The notes: generated by a model not told the origin, from the sequence alone. Positions 9,061-19,625 are shown, counted from the stretch's first letter. The stretch: DNA of 20,000 nucleotides from an uncultured virus (IMG/VR IMGVR_UViG_3300031918_000015) (IMGVR_UViG_3300031918_000015:55890-75889); one strand, 5' to 3'. Translations and numbers: made by a program.

Positions 9061-9177
9061 AAAAAGAGTGCTTAATGATTTAGACATAACAAACACTCTT
9101 TTAAGAAACAAATCATCCAATAGCTATGATAGTATTCAAGTACCAATGAATAAAACTTAGTGTTCGTAGCACTAAGC
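9061..9177 (-). ncRNA. Putative ~117-nt small RNA
   Basis: Minus-strand TTGACT-17-TATAAT promoter; 5' hairpin CUUAGUG-CUACGAA-CACUAAG; 3' terminator AAAAGAGUG...CACUCUUUUU; no RBS-led ORF seen. Confidence 0.65.
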
Positions 9178-9183
9178 ATCTTA

Positions 9184-9212
9184 ATTATATATAGATATTA
9201 AATTAAAGTCAA
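9184..9212 (-). promoter_or_regulatory. Minus-strand sigma-A promoter for the sRNA
   Basis: + strand AGTCAA (9207-9212) = TTGACT; ATTATA (9184-9189) = TATAAT; 17 nt spacer. Confidence 0.7.
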
Positions 9213-9277: not shown

Positions 9278-9306
9278 TTGATATTTCTATTAATTTATTA
9301 TATACT
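9278..9306 (+). promoter_or_regulatory. Sigma-A promoter P7 with the repeated motif filling the spacer
   Basis: TTGATA (9278-9283), 17 nt, TATACT (9301-9306); TTCTATTAATTTATT at 9285-9299. Confidence 0.75.
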
Positions 9307-9315
9307 TAATACATA

Positions 9316-9380
9316 GATAAGGAACAAACAATTCAAGCAATCAAGTTAAGACATAAAAATAAATCTAGTGCAACGCTAGA
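9316..9380 (+). repeat. Conserved leader element, copy 1 (homologous to 12242-12349)
   Basis: GATAAGGAAC..AAACAATTCAAG-CAATCAAGTTAAGACA...TCTAGTGCAACGCTAGA aligns with the sequence in and after the hammerhead. Confidence 0.65.
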
Positions 9381-9443
9381 CGAACTATAGTAGATAGTAA
9401 ATACATAATAAACAAATTAACAGAATAGAGGAAGCGTGATAAT

Positions 9444-9803
9444 ATGGCTACAGATAAAAATAAACAAAATATAAGATTTGCGAAAACAAGTGCATCTCAA
9501 AATAAAAAAGTAAGATATGACGGATTATTAAAAGATGAGGTAACATACATAAAGACAGTTAAGAAACAAGAGCAATCAAGTAAAGACTTAGATAATTTTT
9601 ATAAAACTGTTAAAAGAAATGAAGTTGGAGCTATTGATTGGGACGGTATGGATGAAACTCAATTAGATTACTTTGATTATATTTATAAAAGTAATGAAAA
9701 ACTATTAAAGAAAATTAATAAACTAGAAGATACTAAAATAAAAGATACTGACAAAGTATTAAATATATTCTTACAATTAAATACCAACAGTCAATCGTTT
9801 TAA
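9444..9803 (+). CDS. Hypothetical protein
   Basis: 119-aa ORF with GAGGAAG RBS. Confidence 0.8.
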   Translation: MATDKNKQNIRFAKTSASQNKKVRYDGLLKDEVTYIKTVKKQEQSSKDLDNFYKTVKRNEVGAIDWDGMDETQLDYFDYIYKSNEKLLKKINKLEDTKIKDTDKVLNIFLQLNTNSQSF

Positions 9804-9860
9804 AGTATGTAGATTCAAGGGAATTAAAATAAGTTCCTTTGTATAAGCATATTAAATGCT
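9804..9860 (+). other. Long intercistronic hairpin, copy 1 (similar to 14059-14123)
   Basis: AGTATGT...CAAGGGAATT/AGTTCCTTTG...GCATATT. Confidence 0.55.
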
Positions 9861-9891
9861 AATAAATTAATACATAAAGGGAGAGATTAAA

Positions 9892-10608
9892 ATGTTAAAA
9901 GAAAAATTAATTAAGTTTTATGATGATGAACTATTAGGAGTAAAGGATGAAAATGAAATTGTTTGGATGTCTGCAAATAAAACTATGCAAGACATAGGAC
10001 TTTCAGAAGATCAATGTAAGAAGCAAGCTAGAAATATTAAGAATGATATTGTATTATCACAAGGTTATAAAATGATGAGTGCCAAATATGGCACTATGCA
10101 AGCAACTAAAGAAATGTATTTTATTAGAGAAGATTTTGTTACACTTTGGCTTGCTAAGATTTCATTGACTCCAACTATGCAAAAAGAGAACCCAAAAACA
10201 GTTGAAAAATTAGTTAAGTATCAATTTCAATGCAAAGATGTATTGCATGAAGCCTTCTTTGGAACTGAGGAAAAAAGACAACAAACTTATAATGACTTAG
10301 GTTTAGAAGGTGAAATAAAAGATTTAAAAGTAAAAATAGAAGATATGGACAAAACTATGGGGACATTAATAAATTCAGCTACAATCAATTCATATCAAGC
10401 AAAACAAATAAATAAACACGCAAGAGAAAGAGTTAGTACGATGTTAGGTGGAGCACATTCTAAAAAGTATAAAGACAATTCAAGAACGTATTTTAAAAAT
10501 TTGTGGTTAGGGTTATGTGATACATTTAATGTTTCTGAATATCGTGATTTGAATCCATTGAATTATAGCAATGCTGTCACTTATGTTAGTAACTGGTCAT
10601 TTAGCTAA
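9892..10608 (+). CDS. Phage antirepressor, P22_AR_N N-terminal plus ORF6C C-terminal domain
   Basis: 'FYDDELLG...FVTLWLAKI...EKLVKYQFQCKDVLHEAF' (P22_AR_N pattern); 'YFKNLWLGLCDTFNVSEYRDL...YSNAVTYVSNW' (ORF6C pattern). Confidence 0.85.
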   Translation: MLKEKLIKFYDDELLGVKDENEIVWMSANKTMQDIGLSEDQCKKQARNIKNDIVLSQGYKMMSAKYGTMQATKEMYFIREDFVTLWLAKISLTPTMQKENPKTVEKLVKYQFQCKDVLHEAFFGTEEKRQQTYNDLGLEGEIKDLKVKIEDMDKTMGTLINSATINSYQAKQINKHARERVSTMLGGAHSKKYKDNSRTYFKNLWLGLCDTFNVSEYRDLNPLNYSNAVTYVSNWSFS

Positions 10609-10622
10609 TTAAAAAAATATTT

Positions 10623-10657
10623 AAGGAACTATAAGAAAAAATTTTATAGTTCCTTTT
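10623..10657 (+). terminator. Intrinsic terminator
   Basis: AAGGAACTATAAGA...TTTTATAGTTCCTT-TT. Confidence 0.8.
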
Positions 10658-10801
10658 GTTATATTTTCATAAGAAAAAATAATTTTACCACAATATTATA
10701 GCGTCAGAATGGATTCCAAGGCTATATTGAATCATAAGGAATACAATTGCACCTATAGAAATAAAATTCAGTTATGAGCCTATAAAGAGAATTTTTTCTT
10801 G

Positions 10802-10839
10802 TATTAAAAACAGGTGAACCGTAAACACTTGTTTTAATA
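10802..10839. other. Intergenic inverted repeat
   Basis: TATTAAAAACAGGTG-AACCGTAAA-CACTTGTTTTAATA. Confidence 0.5.
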
Positions 10840-11015
10840 ACCAATTAAAAAACTTATTTTAATAAAAAATTCTATTAATTTATTTTAAAATTTATATACA
10901 ACAATAAATTAAAAGAGTATAATTATATTTATCAGATGGGAATAAGTTGCAAAATAATTAAATTGTAATTGCTATAGAATCTGATATAATTATTATAAGA
11001 GAGGTGCTTTAAAGT

Positions 11016-11279
11016 ATGGATAATGAAACATTAAAAGCAATAAGGACAATGTTAAAAGAAGAACTAGAACCAATAAAGGCTGACATCAAAGAATTAAAAG
11101 CAGATGTAAAAATAATTAAAGAAGACGTTAAAAGCTTAAAAGATAGCATGTCAGACATTCCGACAGATACAAAAGACATTGTTAAGGAAGTATCAGCACT
11201 GAGAAAAGATATGAGCAAAGTAGAACTTATAACGGCAAGTAACTGGGAAGAAGTCACAAAACTAAAATTAATCAAATAA
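11016..11279 (+). CDS. Small coiled-coil hypothetical protein
   Basis: GAGGTG RBS; heptads 'IKADIKELKADVKIIKEDVKSLK'; extended -10 TG-n-TATAAT at 10982-10990 and its own terminator. Confidence 0.8.
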   Translation: MDNETLKAIRTMLKEELEPIKADIKELKADVKIIKEDVKSLKDSMSDIPTDTKDIVKEVSALRKDMSKVELITASNWEEVTKLKLIK

Positions 11280-11292
11280 AAAAACTATTATT

Positions 11293-11320
11293 GCTACTGT
11301 AGAAGGTAGCTTTCTTTTTT
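11293..11320 (+). terminator. Intrinsic terminator
   Basis: GCTACT-GTAGAA-GGTAGC-TTTCTTTTTT. Confidence 0.7.
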
Positions 11321-11598
11321 ATCCATATTTAATTGAAAACAATAATCAATATTAACTTAAAACTATAATTTTATCTACTGAGGTTTTAGAACCCATAAAC
11401 AATAAAACTTACTCACCACAATGCACCAGAATCAATTTTAAGACACATAGACATATACTAAGACCTATGAAATTTAAAACGCTTATATAGTCGATATGAG
11501 TTGTATTTGTATTAGATTCTATATAGTGTTGATAAATCCAGTATTTTCAGCAATAATAAAATAATTTTAAATATTTAAACAAATTAACAGAAATAGTA

Positions 11599-11627
11599 TT
11601 GTATTATTTTAGATGATATGTTATACT
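11599..11627 (+). promoter_or_regulatory. Sigma-A promoter P8
   Basis: TTGTAT (11599-11604), 17 nt, TG-n-TATACT (11622-11627); motif AAACAAATTAACAGAA at 11577-11592. Confidence 0.65.
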
Positions 11628-11678
11628 TATATCAGAAGTTAAGTAACAGATAAAAATAAATTTAAGGGGTTGGAAGTT

Positions 11679-11843
11679 ATGAAGAGAATAGTTACTAGAG
11701 ATAAATGTGCAAAGTACATAGCAAAAAATAGTTTTTGTACCTTTGAGAGAGCAAAAGATTATATAGATAATGGTGTTGAAAATTTACCAAATAATAATAT
11801 TAAATATTTAGGATATGGAAAGTTTGAAATAGAATATAAATAA
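11679..11843 (+). CDS. Small hypothetical protein, 54 aa (MKRIVTRDKCAKYIAKNSFCTFERAKDYID...GYGKFEIEYK), not in ORF track
   Basis: AAGGGG RBS, ATG 11679, TAA 11841-11843, first ORF after P8. Confidence 0.7.
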   Translation: MKRIVTRDKCAKYIAKNSFCTFERAKDYIDNGVENLPNNNIKYLGYGKFEIEYK

Positions 11844-11897
11844 AAATTAAAGCCACCTACCAGTTGGAGGTTAAGGCATAAAAGGAGATTGGGGATT

Positions 11898-12233
11898 ATG
11901 TTAAATGAAAAATTATTAAAAGCAGTTGCAAAGTTAAATAGTGAATATGTAAACATAGAATTAGGAAATACAAGGTTTATAGATGTTATGGAGATTGAAG
12001 GTATCGGAAAATTTTTTGGAATTGGTTTAAAAGATATAGATGAAAAATTTTAAGCATTAAAAGATACTAAATATGAATATGAAAAATTTTGTGATTTATG
12101 TGATGATGGAAAAGAAGATGATTCAAAATTATTATCTGAGGTATTCGATTATTTAGAAATACAAAAATTTGCTCAATCCATTGTTAATAAAATTGCTACA
12201 AGAATGCAAGAAAGAATTAATGAAGTATTATAA
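11898..12233 (+). pseudogene. Interrupted 111-codon hypothetical gene (in-frame TAA at 12051-12053)
   Basis: AAGGAG RBS; MLNEKLLKAVAKL...DIDEKF*ALKDTKYEYEKFCDLC...RINEVL*; frame stays open 59 more codons after the internal stop. Confidence 0.7.
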
Positions 12234-12291
12234 GTAAGTTTGATAAGGAACGTGAGAGTCGCCGAAACTAGCTGACAGGCTAGTCGCTTAC
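12234..12291 (+). ncRNA. Type I hammerhead ribozyme (U3:A8 core variant), predicted cleavage after C12285
   Basis: Stem I GUAAGU/GCUUAC; core UUGAUAA (12240-12246); stem II closed by G12247-C12263; GAAA (12264-12267); stem III ACUAGCU/GGCUAGU; GUC triplet 12283-12285. Confidence 0.85.
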
Positions 12292-12349
12292 AAAAACATT
12301 TCAAGACAATTAAGTAAGACAGAATTTAAAACACTAGTGCAATGCTAGT
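12292..12349 (+). repeat. Conserved leader element, copy 2
   Basis: AAAAACATTTCAAGACAATTAAGTAAGACA...ACTAGTGCAATGCTAGT, homologous to 9326-9380. Confidence 0.65.
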
Positions 12350-12398
12350 TACATAAATAGAGTATAAATAAGCAACATAAAAGGAGGATAGTTACATT

Positions 12399-12605
12399 AT
12401 GACAAATTTTAATAAAAATAATATTAATAAAAACACTAGAGGATTAGTAGTAGGAGGAATCAGTATAATTATTGCAGTATTGTATCATCAAAAAACAACA
12501 GATAATTTACAAAGTAAATTGGAGTATTGTAAAAGTAAGTTATCTGAAAGTGAAAGATATAAAAACAAATACTATGACGCTATTCAAAACTATGATTATG
12601 ACTAA
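12399..12605 (+). CDS. Small membrane-anchored protein (one TM segment plus coiled coil)
   Basis: AAGGAGG RBS; hydrophobic 'GLVVGGISIIIAVLY'. Confidence 0.75.
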   Translation: MTNFNKNNINKNTRGLVVGGISIIIAVLYHQKTTDNLQSKLEYCKSKLSESERYKNKYYDAIQNYDYD

Positions 12606-12620
12606 ATTGGAGATGATGAG

Positions 12621-12860
12621 ATGATTAAATTTAAAGATGTAAAGATAACTAAAGTAAAAATAGGTGGTACGATAAGTGCAAGTGACAGTGATTATGGAGC
12701 ATATTGCAATTATTATAAAGTGAAATTAAAACATAAACCAACCGGAATAAAAATAGAGTATAAAACTGACTCAGACGATGAAGAAGAATATATAGAATCA
12801 ATTAAAGCATTTGAAAAATTAAATAATTTAGTTGAAAATTTACTAAAAAATAAAGGGTAG
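12621..12860 (+). CDS. Hypothetical protein, weak resemblance to the RF-1 (release factor GGQ) domain
   Basis: GGAG RBS; 'VKLKHKPTGIKIE' resembles 'VRITHxPTGIxV'; no GGQ. Confidence 0.65.
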   Translation: MIKFKDVKITKVKIGGTISASDSDYGAYCNYYKVKLKHKPTGIKIEYKTDSDDEEEYIESIKAFEKLNNLVENLLKNKG

Positions 12861-15187: not shown

Positions 15188-16807
15188 ATGAAATATAACT
15201 TTAAATTAAAAAGCTTAAAATATTGCAATGTAGAAAACACAATATCTAAAGATAGTGTTCTTGTATTTAAGGACATAGATGAAGTTGTGAATTATGTAAA
15301 AAATAGAAATTTATATTTTTCCGAGGATAGATTATATTATGGTGACTATTTTTTAGACATAGATTTTACAACAGATGAAAAAGACCTTATAAAATATATT
15401 AAATATTATATTGAAGATATTGAAAAATTTGAAGAATCAAAGGAGATTGATGTAAAAATGAAAAAAGAATTTAGATTATTTGAATGGCAAGCAGACATTG
15501 TGAGAGATGACTCAAAAATAATAATGGCTAATATAAGTCGACAAGGTAGCAAAACTTTCCTATTAGCTAATAAAGTAATGTATGAGAAACCAAAGACAGT
15601 CTTATACATAAATAGTAATATGGGGCAATTAAGAATCTTAAAAGACCATTTTGAAGAAATATTTGCTTTGGATGATACTATAAGAGAATCAATTAGGTAT
15701 TATAATTTCTCTAGAAAGAAATTGTTTATTGAATTTGATACAGGGGAAACGATAACTATATGTGATAAAGATGAAAGATTTGATGAAGATGAAATAATTG
15801 ACATGGTTTTGTTTGACGATGGATTACCTCAATTAGATATTAAGGCTAAAAAGTATGTATCAGTATTTACCATTAAACATCCTATAATGAATTTGTTCAA
15901 TTGCAGAAAAGATATTAGTTATCATGTAATAGGAATTAAGAAGCTTATAGAATCTGGTTATTTAACTAGAGAACAAATAGTAGATACTAAGAAACACATT
16001 GGAGATTTAATGTTTGACAAGGAATTCGACCTTTGTAATGAATATAAGGAGATGTTTGATGAAAAACCAATTAGAGGTCAAAGGAGAAATGCTAATTTAT
16101 ATGAAGAAAGTGCTGGTGATATAAATTTCACTAATACTATTGATTTTAAAGGTGCAATAATGCAAGAACAAAAAGTAAAAAATAAAAGGGTAAAAGAATA
16201 TAATGATATAATAAAAGAAAATTTACAAAATATTAAAGACTTATTTATATCTGAAGAGTTTAAAGTAACTACTCAAAGAAAAACCAATAGAAGTTTTAGC
16301 CTAATAGTAATTAAAGAAACTGAGACAATGAAGATAGAACGAAAATTTAATTGTTTCAATGAATTAGAAAAAATAATGACAATCAATAAAGGAGAAGTAG
16401 ATTTAAAATCATTTGTAGAAAACAAATTAAAGGATTTTATAGTAAGAAAAGCGTTAGAATACGATTTAAAATTAAAGTATAACAATGTTATATTAATAGT
16501 AACTAAAAATGATAATATAAAAGAAATATTTGAGGATATTTCATGTAGATGTCAATTTGATAAATCAACAATAGATGCTAGTAATTATAGTTATGCAACT
16601 GCTACATTAACTTATAGTGGAGCTAAGATAAAAATAAGGAAATTTGATGATAAATTTACAAGACGTAATTTAGGTTGTACAGGTAGAGTTGTTTTGTGTT
16701 ATGGTGATTTTACAGAAGATGAAATCAATACTATCTTAACACCTATGAGTATAGAGACTGGGAAAGTACAAAGATTTATCATAGGAATGGATATGTTTGA
16801 ATTATAA
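15188..16807 (+). CDS. Multidomain protein with a degenerate terminase large subunit-like P-loop ATPase region
   Basis: 'LFEWQ' (Q motif), 'ISRQGSKT' (Walker A-like), 'MVLFDD' (Walker B-like), 'MFDKEFDLC' (like terminase F.QEy.c); no recognisable nuclease domain. Confidence 0.55.
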   Translation: MKYNFKLKSLKYCNVENTISKDSVLVFKDIDEVVNYVKNRNLYFSEDRLYYGDYFLDIDFTTDEKDLIKYIKYYIEDIEKFEESKEIDVKMKKEFRLFEWQADIVRDDSKIIMANISRQGSKTFLLANKVMYEKPKTVLYINSNMGQLRILKDHFEEIFALDDTIRESIRYYNFSRKKLFIEFDTGETITICDKDERFDEDEIIDMVLFDDGLPQLDIKAKKYVSVFTIKHPIMNLFNCRKDISYHVIGIKKLIESGYLTREQIVDTKKHIGDLMFDKEFDLCNEYKEMFDEKPIRGQRRNANLYEESAGDINFTNTIDFKGAIMQEQKVKNKRVKEYNDIIKENLQNIKDLFISEEFKVTTQRKTNRSFSLIVIKETETMKIERKFNCFNELEKIMTINKGEVDLKSFVENKLKDFIVRKALEYDLKLKYNNVILIVTKNDNIKEIFEDISCRCQFDKSTIDASNYSYATATLTYSGAKIKIRKFDDKFTRRNLGCTGRVVLCYGDFTEDEINTILTPMSIETGKVQRFIIGMDMFEL

Positions 16808-18893: not shown

Positions 18894-19625
18894 ATGAGTT
18901 GGGTTAAAGCTTTAAATGAAACTGATAAACAATTTTGTGATGAATGTGCTAATATAACAATAACTTCAACATATCTAATGGAAGAAACAATAAAGGAAAA
19001 TATAGGTATTTTCCAAGCATTATTAATAAGGTTTTCTAAGGATAGGAATATGACAGTAGACGATATAACTAAAGATTTTGATAAATGTTTTGATATTATG
19101 AAATATTTATATATAACAAGTTCAAAAAGATTTCATTTGCTATATGACTGTTATATGGAGGAACTTAGAAGAATATTAAAAAGTAGTAATATACAAAATT
19201 TTAATATAGCTGATAAAAGAATTAAGGTATCACAAATAAAAGCTACTAATATCTTTAAACAATCTATGTCAGAATTAAAAACATTAGGAGATAATCTTAT
19301 AAAAGATTGCATAGATTTTCAAAATGGATTTTTCAATGTTGATGAATTGGAAGAAAACAATGAGAATATGTCTAATGATATTATTGAAAATGTAAATAAA
19401 GATTTTGAGAAAGCTAAAAATAAGTATAATAAAATATTTAAGCAAAGAGATTTAATTAAATATTTAGAAGATAATGGTTATGAATATAAAAATACTGGAA
19501 GACATGCTAATTATACAGATGGAGTAAATACGATTCCTGTGCCAATACATGGCTCTAAGGATCTAGGATATGGATTGCAAAGAAAAATTCAAAAAGAAGT
19601 TGTAGCCCATAAAAATATGTTATAA
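18894..19625 (+). CDS. Protein with a C-terminal HicA-like mRNA interferase domain
   Basis: 'KQRDLIKYLEDNGYEYKNTGRHANYTDGVNTIPVPIHGSKDLGYGLQRKIQKEV' matches HicA (G-x-H, VP.H, DL..G). Confidence 0.8.
   Translation: MSWVKALNETDKQFCDECANITITSTYLMEETIKENIGIFQALLIRFSKDRNMTVDDITKDFDKCFDIMKYLYITSSKRFHLLYDCYMEELRRILKSSNIQNFNIADKRIKVSQIKATNIFKQSMSELKTLGDNLIKDCIDFQNGFFNVDELEENNENMSNDIIENVNKDFEKAKNKYNKIFKQRDLIKYLEDNGYEYKNTGRHANYTDGVNTIPVPIHGSKDLGYGLQRKIQKEVVAHKNML

Follow-up and report, generated by a model that had tools for sequence, protein, structure and literature searches.

A homologous leader behind a predicted promoter and behind a hammerhead-like element in an AT-rich peat phage genome

Introduction

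In Firmicutes, the life of an mRNA can be set from its 5' end by 5'-terminal stabiliser hairpins and by STAB-SD leaders, with the hairpins lying few bases from that end. In phage lambda, the nut sites combine a single-stranded block and a small hairpin (boxA and boxB) early in a phage operon. The original paper on the synthetic insulator RiboJ is reportedly that of Lou and colleagues, from 2012. This insulator joins the sTRSV hammerhead to a 23-base hairpin (Clifton et al., 2018; PMC6206723). Natural hammerheads lying between the genes of phages and prophages have been proposed to divide long transcripts into mRNAs of gene length (Perreault et al., 2011; PMC3088659), and for the HHphage of the haloviruses HF1/HF2 the 5' end mapped for the major transcript falls within three bases of the cut (PMC3088659). 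The role of many such inter-gene phage hammerheads is still largely a guess. Here we analyze a stretch of 20,000 bases from an uncultured virus (IMGVR_UViG_3300031918_000015; hereafter the window), in which one type of leader follows a predicted promoter at one site (leader copy 1) and a hammerhead-like element about 3 kb further on (leader copy 2). We tentatively suggest that this shared leader is given a promoter-like 5' end either by the promoter or by the hammerhead cut, a reading that, from the sequence, we regard as possible rather than expected.

Several described systems resemble parts of this arrangement. Like the phage hammerheads of Perreault et al. (2011), among which a U3-A8 core is known, the element is a small three-stem motif between same-strand phage genes. 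It differs from those described there in being present as a single copy, in its type I order, in falling below every Rfam threshold tried, and in an unusual bulged stem II without a clear contact between stems I and II, and its cleavage is predicted. The HF1/HF2 HHphage is likewise a viral hammerhead just 5' of a gene, where the ribozyme makes the mRNA start, as is predicted here; however, it belongs to an archaeal virus, has another core variant and lies 13 bases from the start codon, and the passages of PMC3088659 that treat it describe no leader in common with a promoter-driven gene. As in RiboJ, a hammerhead would strip the upstream RNA and leave a fixed, hairpin-bearing leader before the ribosome site, with a start that does not depend on the promoter. 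RiboJ is engineered, carries its hairpin at the new 5' end and has a measured effect, whereas the present locus is natural, has its hairpin 47 bases from the predicted cut and is known from sequence. On our reading, the locus may be the natural equivalent of the RiboJ insulator.

These precedents, in phage hammerheads (PMC3088659) and in the RiboJ design as far as these sources describe them, make the ribozyme-plus-leader module less new than it had appeared to the sequence-only reading of this stretch, which did not recognise it as described. The locus provides a paired natural comparison within one genome, and a leader found behind a promoter and behind a putative ribozyme bears on promoter-like starts, insulation, 5'-OH stabilisation and uncoupled translation. 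If the suggested reading is true, nature anticipated RiboJ, and other hammerhead contexts could be re-read accordingly; if it is not, the locus is one more variant-core phage hammerhead beside a recombining promoter cassette.

Results and Discussion

Two homologous leaders across an indel

The letters and positions first reported for the two leaders (Table 1) match the sequence, and a MAFFT alignment places them opposite each other with 40 of 62 columns identical. The same alignment sets the 10-mer before copy 1 against its counterpart inside the hammerhead-like element, confirming the identity noticed earlier, and resolves the reported difference of about 40 nucleotides into a single gap of 42 bases in copy 1, opposite 12252-12293. 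As estimated from base frequencies, a collinear 10-mer across such a gap would arise by chance about 4 times in 100,000. Outside the invariant word CTAGTGCAAYGCT, copies 1 and 2 are about 70% alike. Within the 75,889-base genome they are each other's best non-self matches, with a local score of 48 against 36 and 38 for the next best, and the best scores in second-order Markov genomes ranged from 25 to 37 (30/30 below that of the leader pair). Given this separation from the null range, together with the promoter match, the sequence part of the finding is real and above chance. By alignment, the two leaders are homologous across a 42-base indel.

Searches with a leader model (R2) agreed on two copies in the window's parent record (G000), with 79.8 bits for copy 2, 75.7 bits for copy 1 and nothing above 17.5 bits elsewhere; in a longer contig containing the same stretch (G001), the best other match had 15.7 bits. 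No additional copy in G000 was found by blastn-short, and the pair was not among the 20 repeat families listed by a repeat search of that record. Comparison with Rfam gave no family at the gathering score in the window, and only chance-level matches at E<=10. No antisense partner of the leader was found in G000, G001 or a related phage (G002) with R2 on both strands. A leader peptide was considered and rejected, as ATT-started frames differ between the copies and are broken by indels.

The promoter of copy 1 and a third leader in a related phage

The promoter upstream of copy 1 is composed of a -35 box TTGATA (9278-9283), a spacer of 17 bases and a -10 box TATACT (9301-9306). A transcription start near 9313, as had been proposed, is plausible: a good promoter is found there by consensus scan, although the start itself is predicted only. 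The recurrent phage word CTATTAATTTATT sits within the spacer.

We reached a related phage (G002; 218,173 bases, 88% complete) through a 539-amino-acid (aa) protein encoded at 15188-16807, at 63% identity. R2 has one clear match in this genome (53.3 bits, E 1.7e-7; 53.2 bits with filters off), all others being at or below 17 bits. The site is the counterpart of copy 1, with a promoter (TTGATG, 17 bases, TATACT) followed by GACAAGGAAC, the 10-mer with a T>C variant at the position of 9318, and then by the leader. The first gene after it is a different one, a 58-codon frame, and a homologue of the anti-repressor-like protein encoded behind copy 1 (44-48%) lies further downstream; for the genes around copy 2, no homologues were found in G002. 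As judged from sequence comparison, promoter plus leader is a conserved cassette that heads the anti-repressor operon in two phages sharing few other local genes. The model search of relatives envisaged by the sequence-only reading has supplied one further copy, again behind a promoter, but no covariation.

Three pattern scans of 2.9 million viral contigs returned these three leader copies only. The hairpin plus TAAGACA gave two loci, each of them identical (100%) to the window's own phage; AAACAWTTCAAG followed by TAAGACA gave 44, of which two were self and 42 unrelated and mostly coding; and AAGACA followed by CTAGTGCAAYGCT gave six, three of them true (copy 1, copy 2 and G002) and three due to chance. 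Single-protein searches with the downstream proteins found self only. Relatives at 83-60% are known for the 119-aa protein encoded first behind copy 1. With a 13-protein alignment of the family of the 119-aa protein encoded first behind copy 1, we found self in the viral contigs plus four distant loci (L053 and L055-L057; 39-50% identity), none of which (0/4) carries the leader, and no match in plasmids or phages.

The spacer word CTATTAATTTATT occurs in the window at 180, 1665, 2637, 3836, 7077, 9287 and 10872. It usually stands just 5' of the -35 box in sigma-70-like promoters, the promoter at 9278-9306 being an exception in carrying it inside the spacer rather than there. It is nearly the reverse complement of a word found just 5' of the Shine-Dalgarno (SD) site, and the two words bracket promoters as an inverted repeat. 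The latter word, AAYAAATTAAWA, precedes the SD site of many G000 genes on both strands (e.g., 1726-1740, 9409-9423 and 9861-9873). Among 86 genes from a crude call, 35 have ACAAATTAA (at most one mismatch) in the 80 bases upstream, usually at a distance of 24-44 bases from the start; the background frequency is 0.10 per 80 bases. The pre-SD word AAYAAATTAA is compatible with the AR9 late-promoter word AACA-N6-TA (PMC7598289). Of the 51 open reading frames (ORFs) of at least 330 aa in G002, the 45 scanned include no subunit of a phage RNA polymerase; the other six span locus borders.

A strong promoter-like site is also present on the minus strand (TTGACT, 17 bases, TATAAT; 11/12 matches) in window positions 9155-9212. 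It aims directly at a two-way terminator-like hairpin at 9155-9177, and may give rise to a very short RNA or be a product of chance.

A hammerhead-like element upstream of copy 2

The element preceding copy 2 can be drawn by hand as a type I hammerhead, and its minimum-energy fold contains stems I and III and a short stem II. U4, G5, A6, A9, G12, A13, A14, A15.1-U16.1 and C17 are all present, and the only departures from the hammerhead consensus are U3 and A8, which replace C3-G8. Several natural hammerheads show this covariation, and activity in vitro is documented for variants of this kind (Perreault et al., 2011; PMC3088659); U3-A8 is described in Penelope-like elements as well (Cervera and de la Pena, 2014; PMC4209133). 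The GC content of the element is 0.48, compared to 0.25 for the genome, and no terminator-like site lies between 12233 and 12399, where the element stands between same-strand genes.

We searched for comparable motifs with a descriptor that was written after the candidate was seen and that allowed C3-G8 or U3-A8 with stems of at least 5, 4 and 5 pairs. It matched once in G000 (75,889 bases, both strands) and never in 300 Markov-2 shuffled genomes. Relaxing the stems to 4, 3 and 4 pairs, over about 395 kb of G000, G001 and G002, added only three weak AT-rich matches. These features make a hammerhead at the locus probable, and we lean towards an element that really self-cleaves. The name of ribozyme given to it earlier is not confirmed as it stood: the Rfam models miss the element, and the type I fit with a U3-A8 core comes from the hand drawing and the descriptor.

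A pattern scan of viral contigs for the hammerhead core with fixed spacing gave 21 loci, of which self alone was convincing. Among the rest, L100, L116 and L119 were taken as chance (16-17 bits, contigs of GC 0.60, other folds). Two hand-drawn pairings, a pseudoknot between loop II and the 3' tail (UGAGA with UUUCA) and an alternative pairing of the 5' end that cleavage would leave (CUUAC with GUAAG at 12314-12318), were each estimated to be about as likely by chance as not, and neither was used.

A proposed promoter-like 5' end from initiation or from cleavage

In the mechanism we propose, a small group of large, AT-rich peat phages would use the leader, about 56 bases long, as the 5'-proximal part of the untranslated region (UTR) in operons that are accessory or early. 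Transcription by host RNA polymerase would begin about 13 bases before the leader, from the promoter at 9278-9306. At the second locus, the type I hammerhead within a polycistronic transcript would cut itself after C12285, and the mRNA released downstream would have its 5'-OH end 8 bases ahead of leader copy 2. Both mRNAs would then begin with the same A-rich tract and carry CUAGUGCAAYGCU 47-52 bases from the end, and downstream translation and decay would be set by the leader, independent of the upstream sequence. Such a leader would resemble Firmicute stabilisers and STAB-SD leaders in setting the life of the mRNA from its 5' end, but, unlike in STAB-SD, the SD-like AAGGA of the 10-mer would be in the mature RNA only in copy 1, and not after the copy-2 cut.

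The idea of a supplied 5' end is attractive and, by analogy, has precedents, and the requirement of the leader for a nearby 5' end is its weakest step. A range of observations weighs against it. The readable leader copies number three, in two phages. The predicted distances from the RNA end to the start of the hairpin are alike (51 bases in copy 1, about 52 in G002 and 47 in copy 2), but this equal spacing is mostly due to homology and does not constitute independent evidence. A hairpin about 50 bases from the end also differs from the known 5'-terminal stabilisers. Further points of this kind concern the element and the leader hairpin, and are considered in turn.

For the element, no Rfam hammerhead appears at the gathering score in the window or at E<=10 in 12150-12420 (271 bases), and a search of G000 with RF00163 and RF00008 is empty at E<=10. 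The element is present once: with model R3, no further copy was detected in G000, G001 or the G002 loci L066-L068, and neither the search of the G002 record nor the relaxed descriptor found one in G002. Stem II needs an AA bulge, the 1.1-2.1 pair is G.U, and no tertiary contact between stems I and II stood out clearly. No diverged homologue of the element could be read. The absence of an Rfam match at any threshold tried, the single copy without visible covariation and the bulged stem II with no clear contact to stem I would also suit a decayed hammerhead, or another structured RNA such as a protein or RNase site, with the genes translated from uncut polycistronic RNA. Yet all 11 invariant core positions are right once U3-A8 is allowed, with none such in the 300 shuffled genomes, and a conserved block as long as the hammerhead is found in other surroundings; an inactive element appears unlikely to us. 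This block comes from a comparison with metagenome contigs of four sequencing runs, low-depth contigs of other organisms that provide hints only. It matches 12230-12296, almost exactly the hammerhead, with nine changes and no gaps, in contigs of 372 and 356 bases from two of the four runs (X21 and X22), and the flanks of these contigs do not match the window.

The leader hairpin of copy 1 (9364-9380) consists of seven pairs and a CAA loop (-6.5 kcal/mol, z -2.95), and that of copy 2 (12333-12349) has a closing A-U pair and G.U beside the loop (-4.9 kcal/mol, z -0.88). Across the three copies, pairing is present in 17 of 18 cells, one pair passing from G-C to G.U and one being broken (U.U in G002), and CTAGTGCAAYGCT, the 5' arm plus loop, is invariant in 3/3. 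The earlier statement that the hairpin covaries is accurate as to the differences described, closing U-A versus A-U and G-C versus G-U, but did not hold up once the third copy was added: none of the six stem pairs (0/6) has changed on both sides, and the U-A to A-U switch is confined to the additional closing pair. For the G002 copy no such hairpin is predicted, its U.U being uncompensated and its -0.7 kcal/mol belonging to a different fold, and the G002-type variant is the commoner one in run X23 (depth 89.5 vs 15.2). The six differences that separate copy 1 from the G002 type are evenly distributed, one of them being in the stem. The evidence for a conserved leader structure is thin, and we regard the leader as a small family of three copies, uncatalogued and not supported at the level of structure. 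A terminator on the minus strand at this position was rejected because of weaker stems there with A.C mismatches.

That sequence is better conserved than pairing would be expected of a DNA operator, in which the imperfect palindrome TCTAGTGCAACGCTAGA and the preceding blocks bind a phage regulator of the anti-repressor operon and of the operon at 12399. Copy 1 and the G002 copy do head anti-repressor operons, which are usually tightly controlled in phages. However, the symmetry needs G.U pairs, only 6/7 and 5/7 positions matching as DNA, and the site lies about 50 bases into the transcript, with copy 2 far from any promoter. Folding of the minus strand is also weaker (-4.5 and -3.4 kcal/mol vs -6.5 and -4.9 on the plus strand). 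In these models, the presence of G.U pairs and the stronger folds of the plus strand favor RNA over duplex DNA by a small margin, and we consider an operator very improbable.

A nut/boxB-like signal for processive antitermination, raised in the sequence-only reading, shares with the leader an unstructured conserved block and a short hairpin early in the operon, that is, boxA and boxB in outline, and we found nothing in its favor beyond this outline. The leader differs from the lambda sites in loop size and sequence, having the 3-base CAA rather than a GNRA-like, purine-rich pentaloop kept in relatives, and its hairpin is broken in G002. No boxA-like word was seen on reading the leader against the boxA consensus, and no N-like or Q-like gene or other cognate protein was found among the annotated proteins. 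The only strong terminator after copy 1 is the one that closes the operon. An antitermination signal of this type is extremely improbable.

A mobile cassette of promoter plus UTR, copied and cut by phage recombination, offers another account, in which the copies share descent only, with no 5'-end requirement and perhaps no function of their own. Copy 2 would then be a piece of the cassette beside an unrelated hammerhead, or copy 1 a promoter fused into an older hammerhead-leader unit. In G002 the cassette is kept with its promoter while the flanking genes are not alignable, and the stem break without compensation and the even spread of changes between copy 1 and G002 would be expected under descent alone, as would the several joints at promoter/leader borders in metagenome contigs. 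Shared descent by itself is less able to explain why CTAGTGCAAYGCT is identical in 3/3 copies when copies 1 and 2 are otherwise so diverged, and why the leader persists in three different gene contexts. We view it as somewhat unlikely to be the whole explanation.

The joints in question are positions at which contigs of related phages break and rejoin, at 9281-9302, 10792-10835, 11373 and 12312 of the window, as expected if short regulatory cassettes are points of recombination. One X23 contig appears to pass from the promoter (9302) into the copy-2 leader (12312) via 36 other letters, with the hairpin beginning about 49 bases from the predicted start by our own count. This joint suggests, from the assembled contig, a third phage with a promoter before a copy-2-like leader. 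Given the promoter and leader pairs in the window, in G002 and in the X23 contig, promoter and ribozyme would both occur upstream of the same leader type.

For the history of the two loci, we consider that promoter-defined and ribozyme-defined starts may be interchangeable in evolution, with a single functional leader kept by the phage and the hammerhead acting as a natural insulator within an operon, a promoter having been fused into a hammerhead of which 42 bases (the 3' two-thirds) were lost and the 10-mer was left as a scar. A deletion of 42 bases with promoter fusion would be the more economical direction, as an insertion would have had to complete a hammerhead by luck. This scenario as a whole is distinctly unlikely in our estimate.

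Source, setting and neighbouring genes

The window represents the last 20 kb of a virus record of 75,889 bases (G000), with 25% GC and a CheckV completeness of 31%. The stretch recurs letter for letter in an IMG/VR contig of 140,944 bases (G001), and a metagenome contig of 248,556 bases encodes the 119-aa protein at 100% identity. All of the sequencing runs listed with the window stretch (24/24) are peat metagenomes, none of them an RNA data set. In the phage collection, the only match was Clostridium phage D-1873, which is 66% identical in a part of the anti-repressor gene. At both leader loci the surrounding genes are all on the plus strand and are small accessory ones (anti-repressor-like, Rha, ParB-like and HicA-domain); those nearest to the leaders are listed in Table 1.

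Table 1. Coordinates of the leaders, the hammerhead-like element and adjacent features in the window.
Feature	Position	Strand	Basis or remark
Sigma-70-type promoter of copy 1	9278-9306	+	Consensus scan, 10/12 matches
10-mer GATAAGGAAC	9316-9325	+	Identical to copy-2 hammerhead positions G5 to 10.5 (12242-12251)
Leader copy 1	9326-9380	+	A-rich tract, blocks AAACAATTCAAG and AAGTTAAGACA, then hairpin
Copy-1 operon	9444-10608	+	ORFs; closed by strong terminator 10623-10655
119-aa protein, no assigned function	9444-9803	+	First gene after leader copy 1
Anti-repressor-like protein	9892-10608	+	Pfam P22_AR_N and ORF6C, PHROG anti-repressor
Reading frame upstream of hammerhead-like element	11889-12233	+	Stops 1 base before the element
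Hammerhead-like element, type I order	12234-12291	+	Hand reading, descriptor, minimum-energy fold
Stem I	12234-12239 with 12286-12291	+	GUAAGU paired with GCUUAC, 6 pairs
Core UUGAUAA	12240-12246	+	U3-A8 variant
Stem II	12247-12263	+	Opens with G10.1-C11.1; AA bulge; 4-5 pairs
GAA	12264-12266	+	Hammerhead core
Stem III	12267-12284	+	7 pairs, first A15.1-U16.1
C17	12285	+	Predicted cut between 12285 and 12286
Leader copy 2	12294-12349	+	Blocks AAACATTTCAAG and AAGTAAGACA, then hairpin
Copy-2 genes	12399-12860	+	Two ORFs, neither matching any family
68-aa protein with hydrophobic stretch	12399-12605	+	AGGAGG at 12382-12387
79-aa protein	12621-12860	+	ORF, no family match

The frame that ends just before the hammerhead-like element contains an in-frame stop codon, TAA at 12051-12053, which leaves parts of 54 and 59 codons, and would otherwise be open over 114. 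Its second half has no plausible start codon, and long metagenome contigs have the same TAA. This arrangement could be a case of read-through, a pseudogene or two separate peptides.

Further along the window, a protein of 243 aa (18894-19625) carries a C-terminal HicA toxin domain (Pfam, 1.7e-8) and is longer than HicA usually is. The 539-aa gene has a second copy in G001, within locus L066 (74545-95888), that is 84% identical, with neighbours that are 35-49% identical; either a large diverged duplication or two related phages assembled together would account for it. In G002, the homologue of this protein is interrupted by about 1.8 kb (L067, 8008-8193 and 10001-11744), with residues 1-62 far upstream. 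The interruption is likely an insertion of the intron or intein type, and G002 contains many HNH and homing-endonuclease ORFs.

Elsewhere in these genomes, tubulin/PhuZ-like proteins are encoded on the minus strand in both phages, in G000 at 40123-41337, with a GGAGG signature seen by eye, and in G002 (L083, 7003-8088), with a match to PHROG tubulin PhuZ at 2.8e-8. G002 additionally encodes an integrase, an anaerobic ribonucleotide reductase and its own DNA polymerase. Two catalogued RNAs were recovered as well: a drum RNA (RF02958) on the minus strand of G000 at about 25962-26072 (L006, 6062-6172), whose 55.9 bits exceed the gathering score, and a skipping-rope RNA (RF02924) on the plus strand of G002 (L084, 5791-5869), with 61.6 bits.

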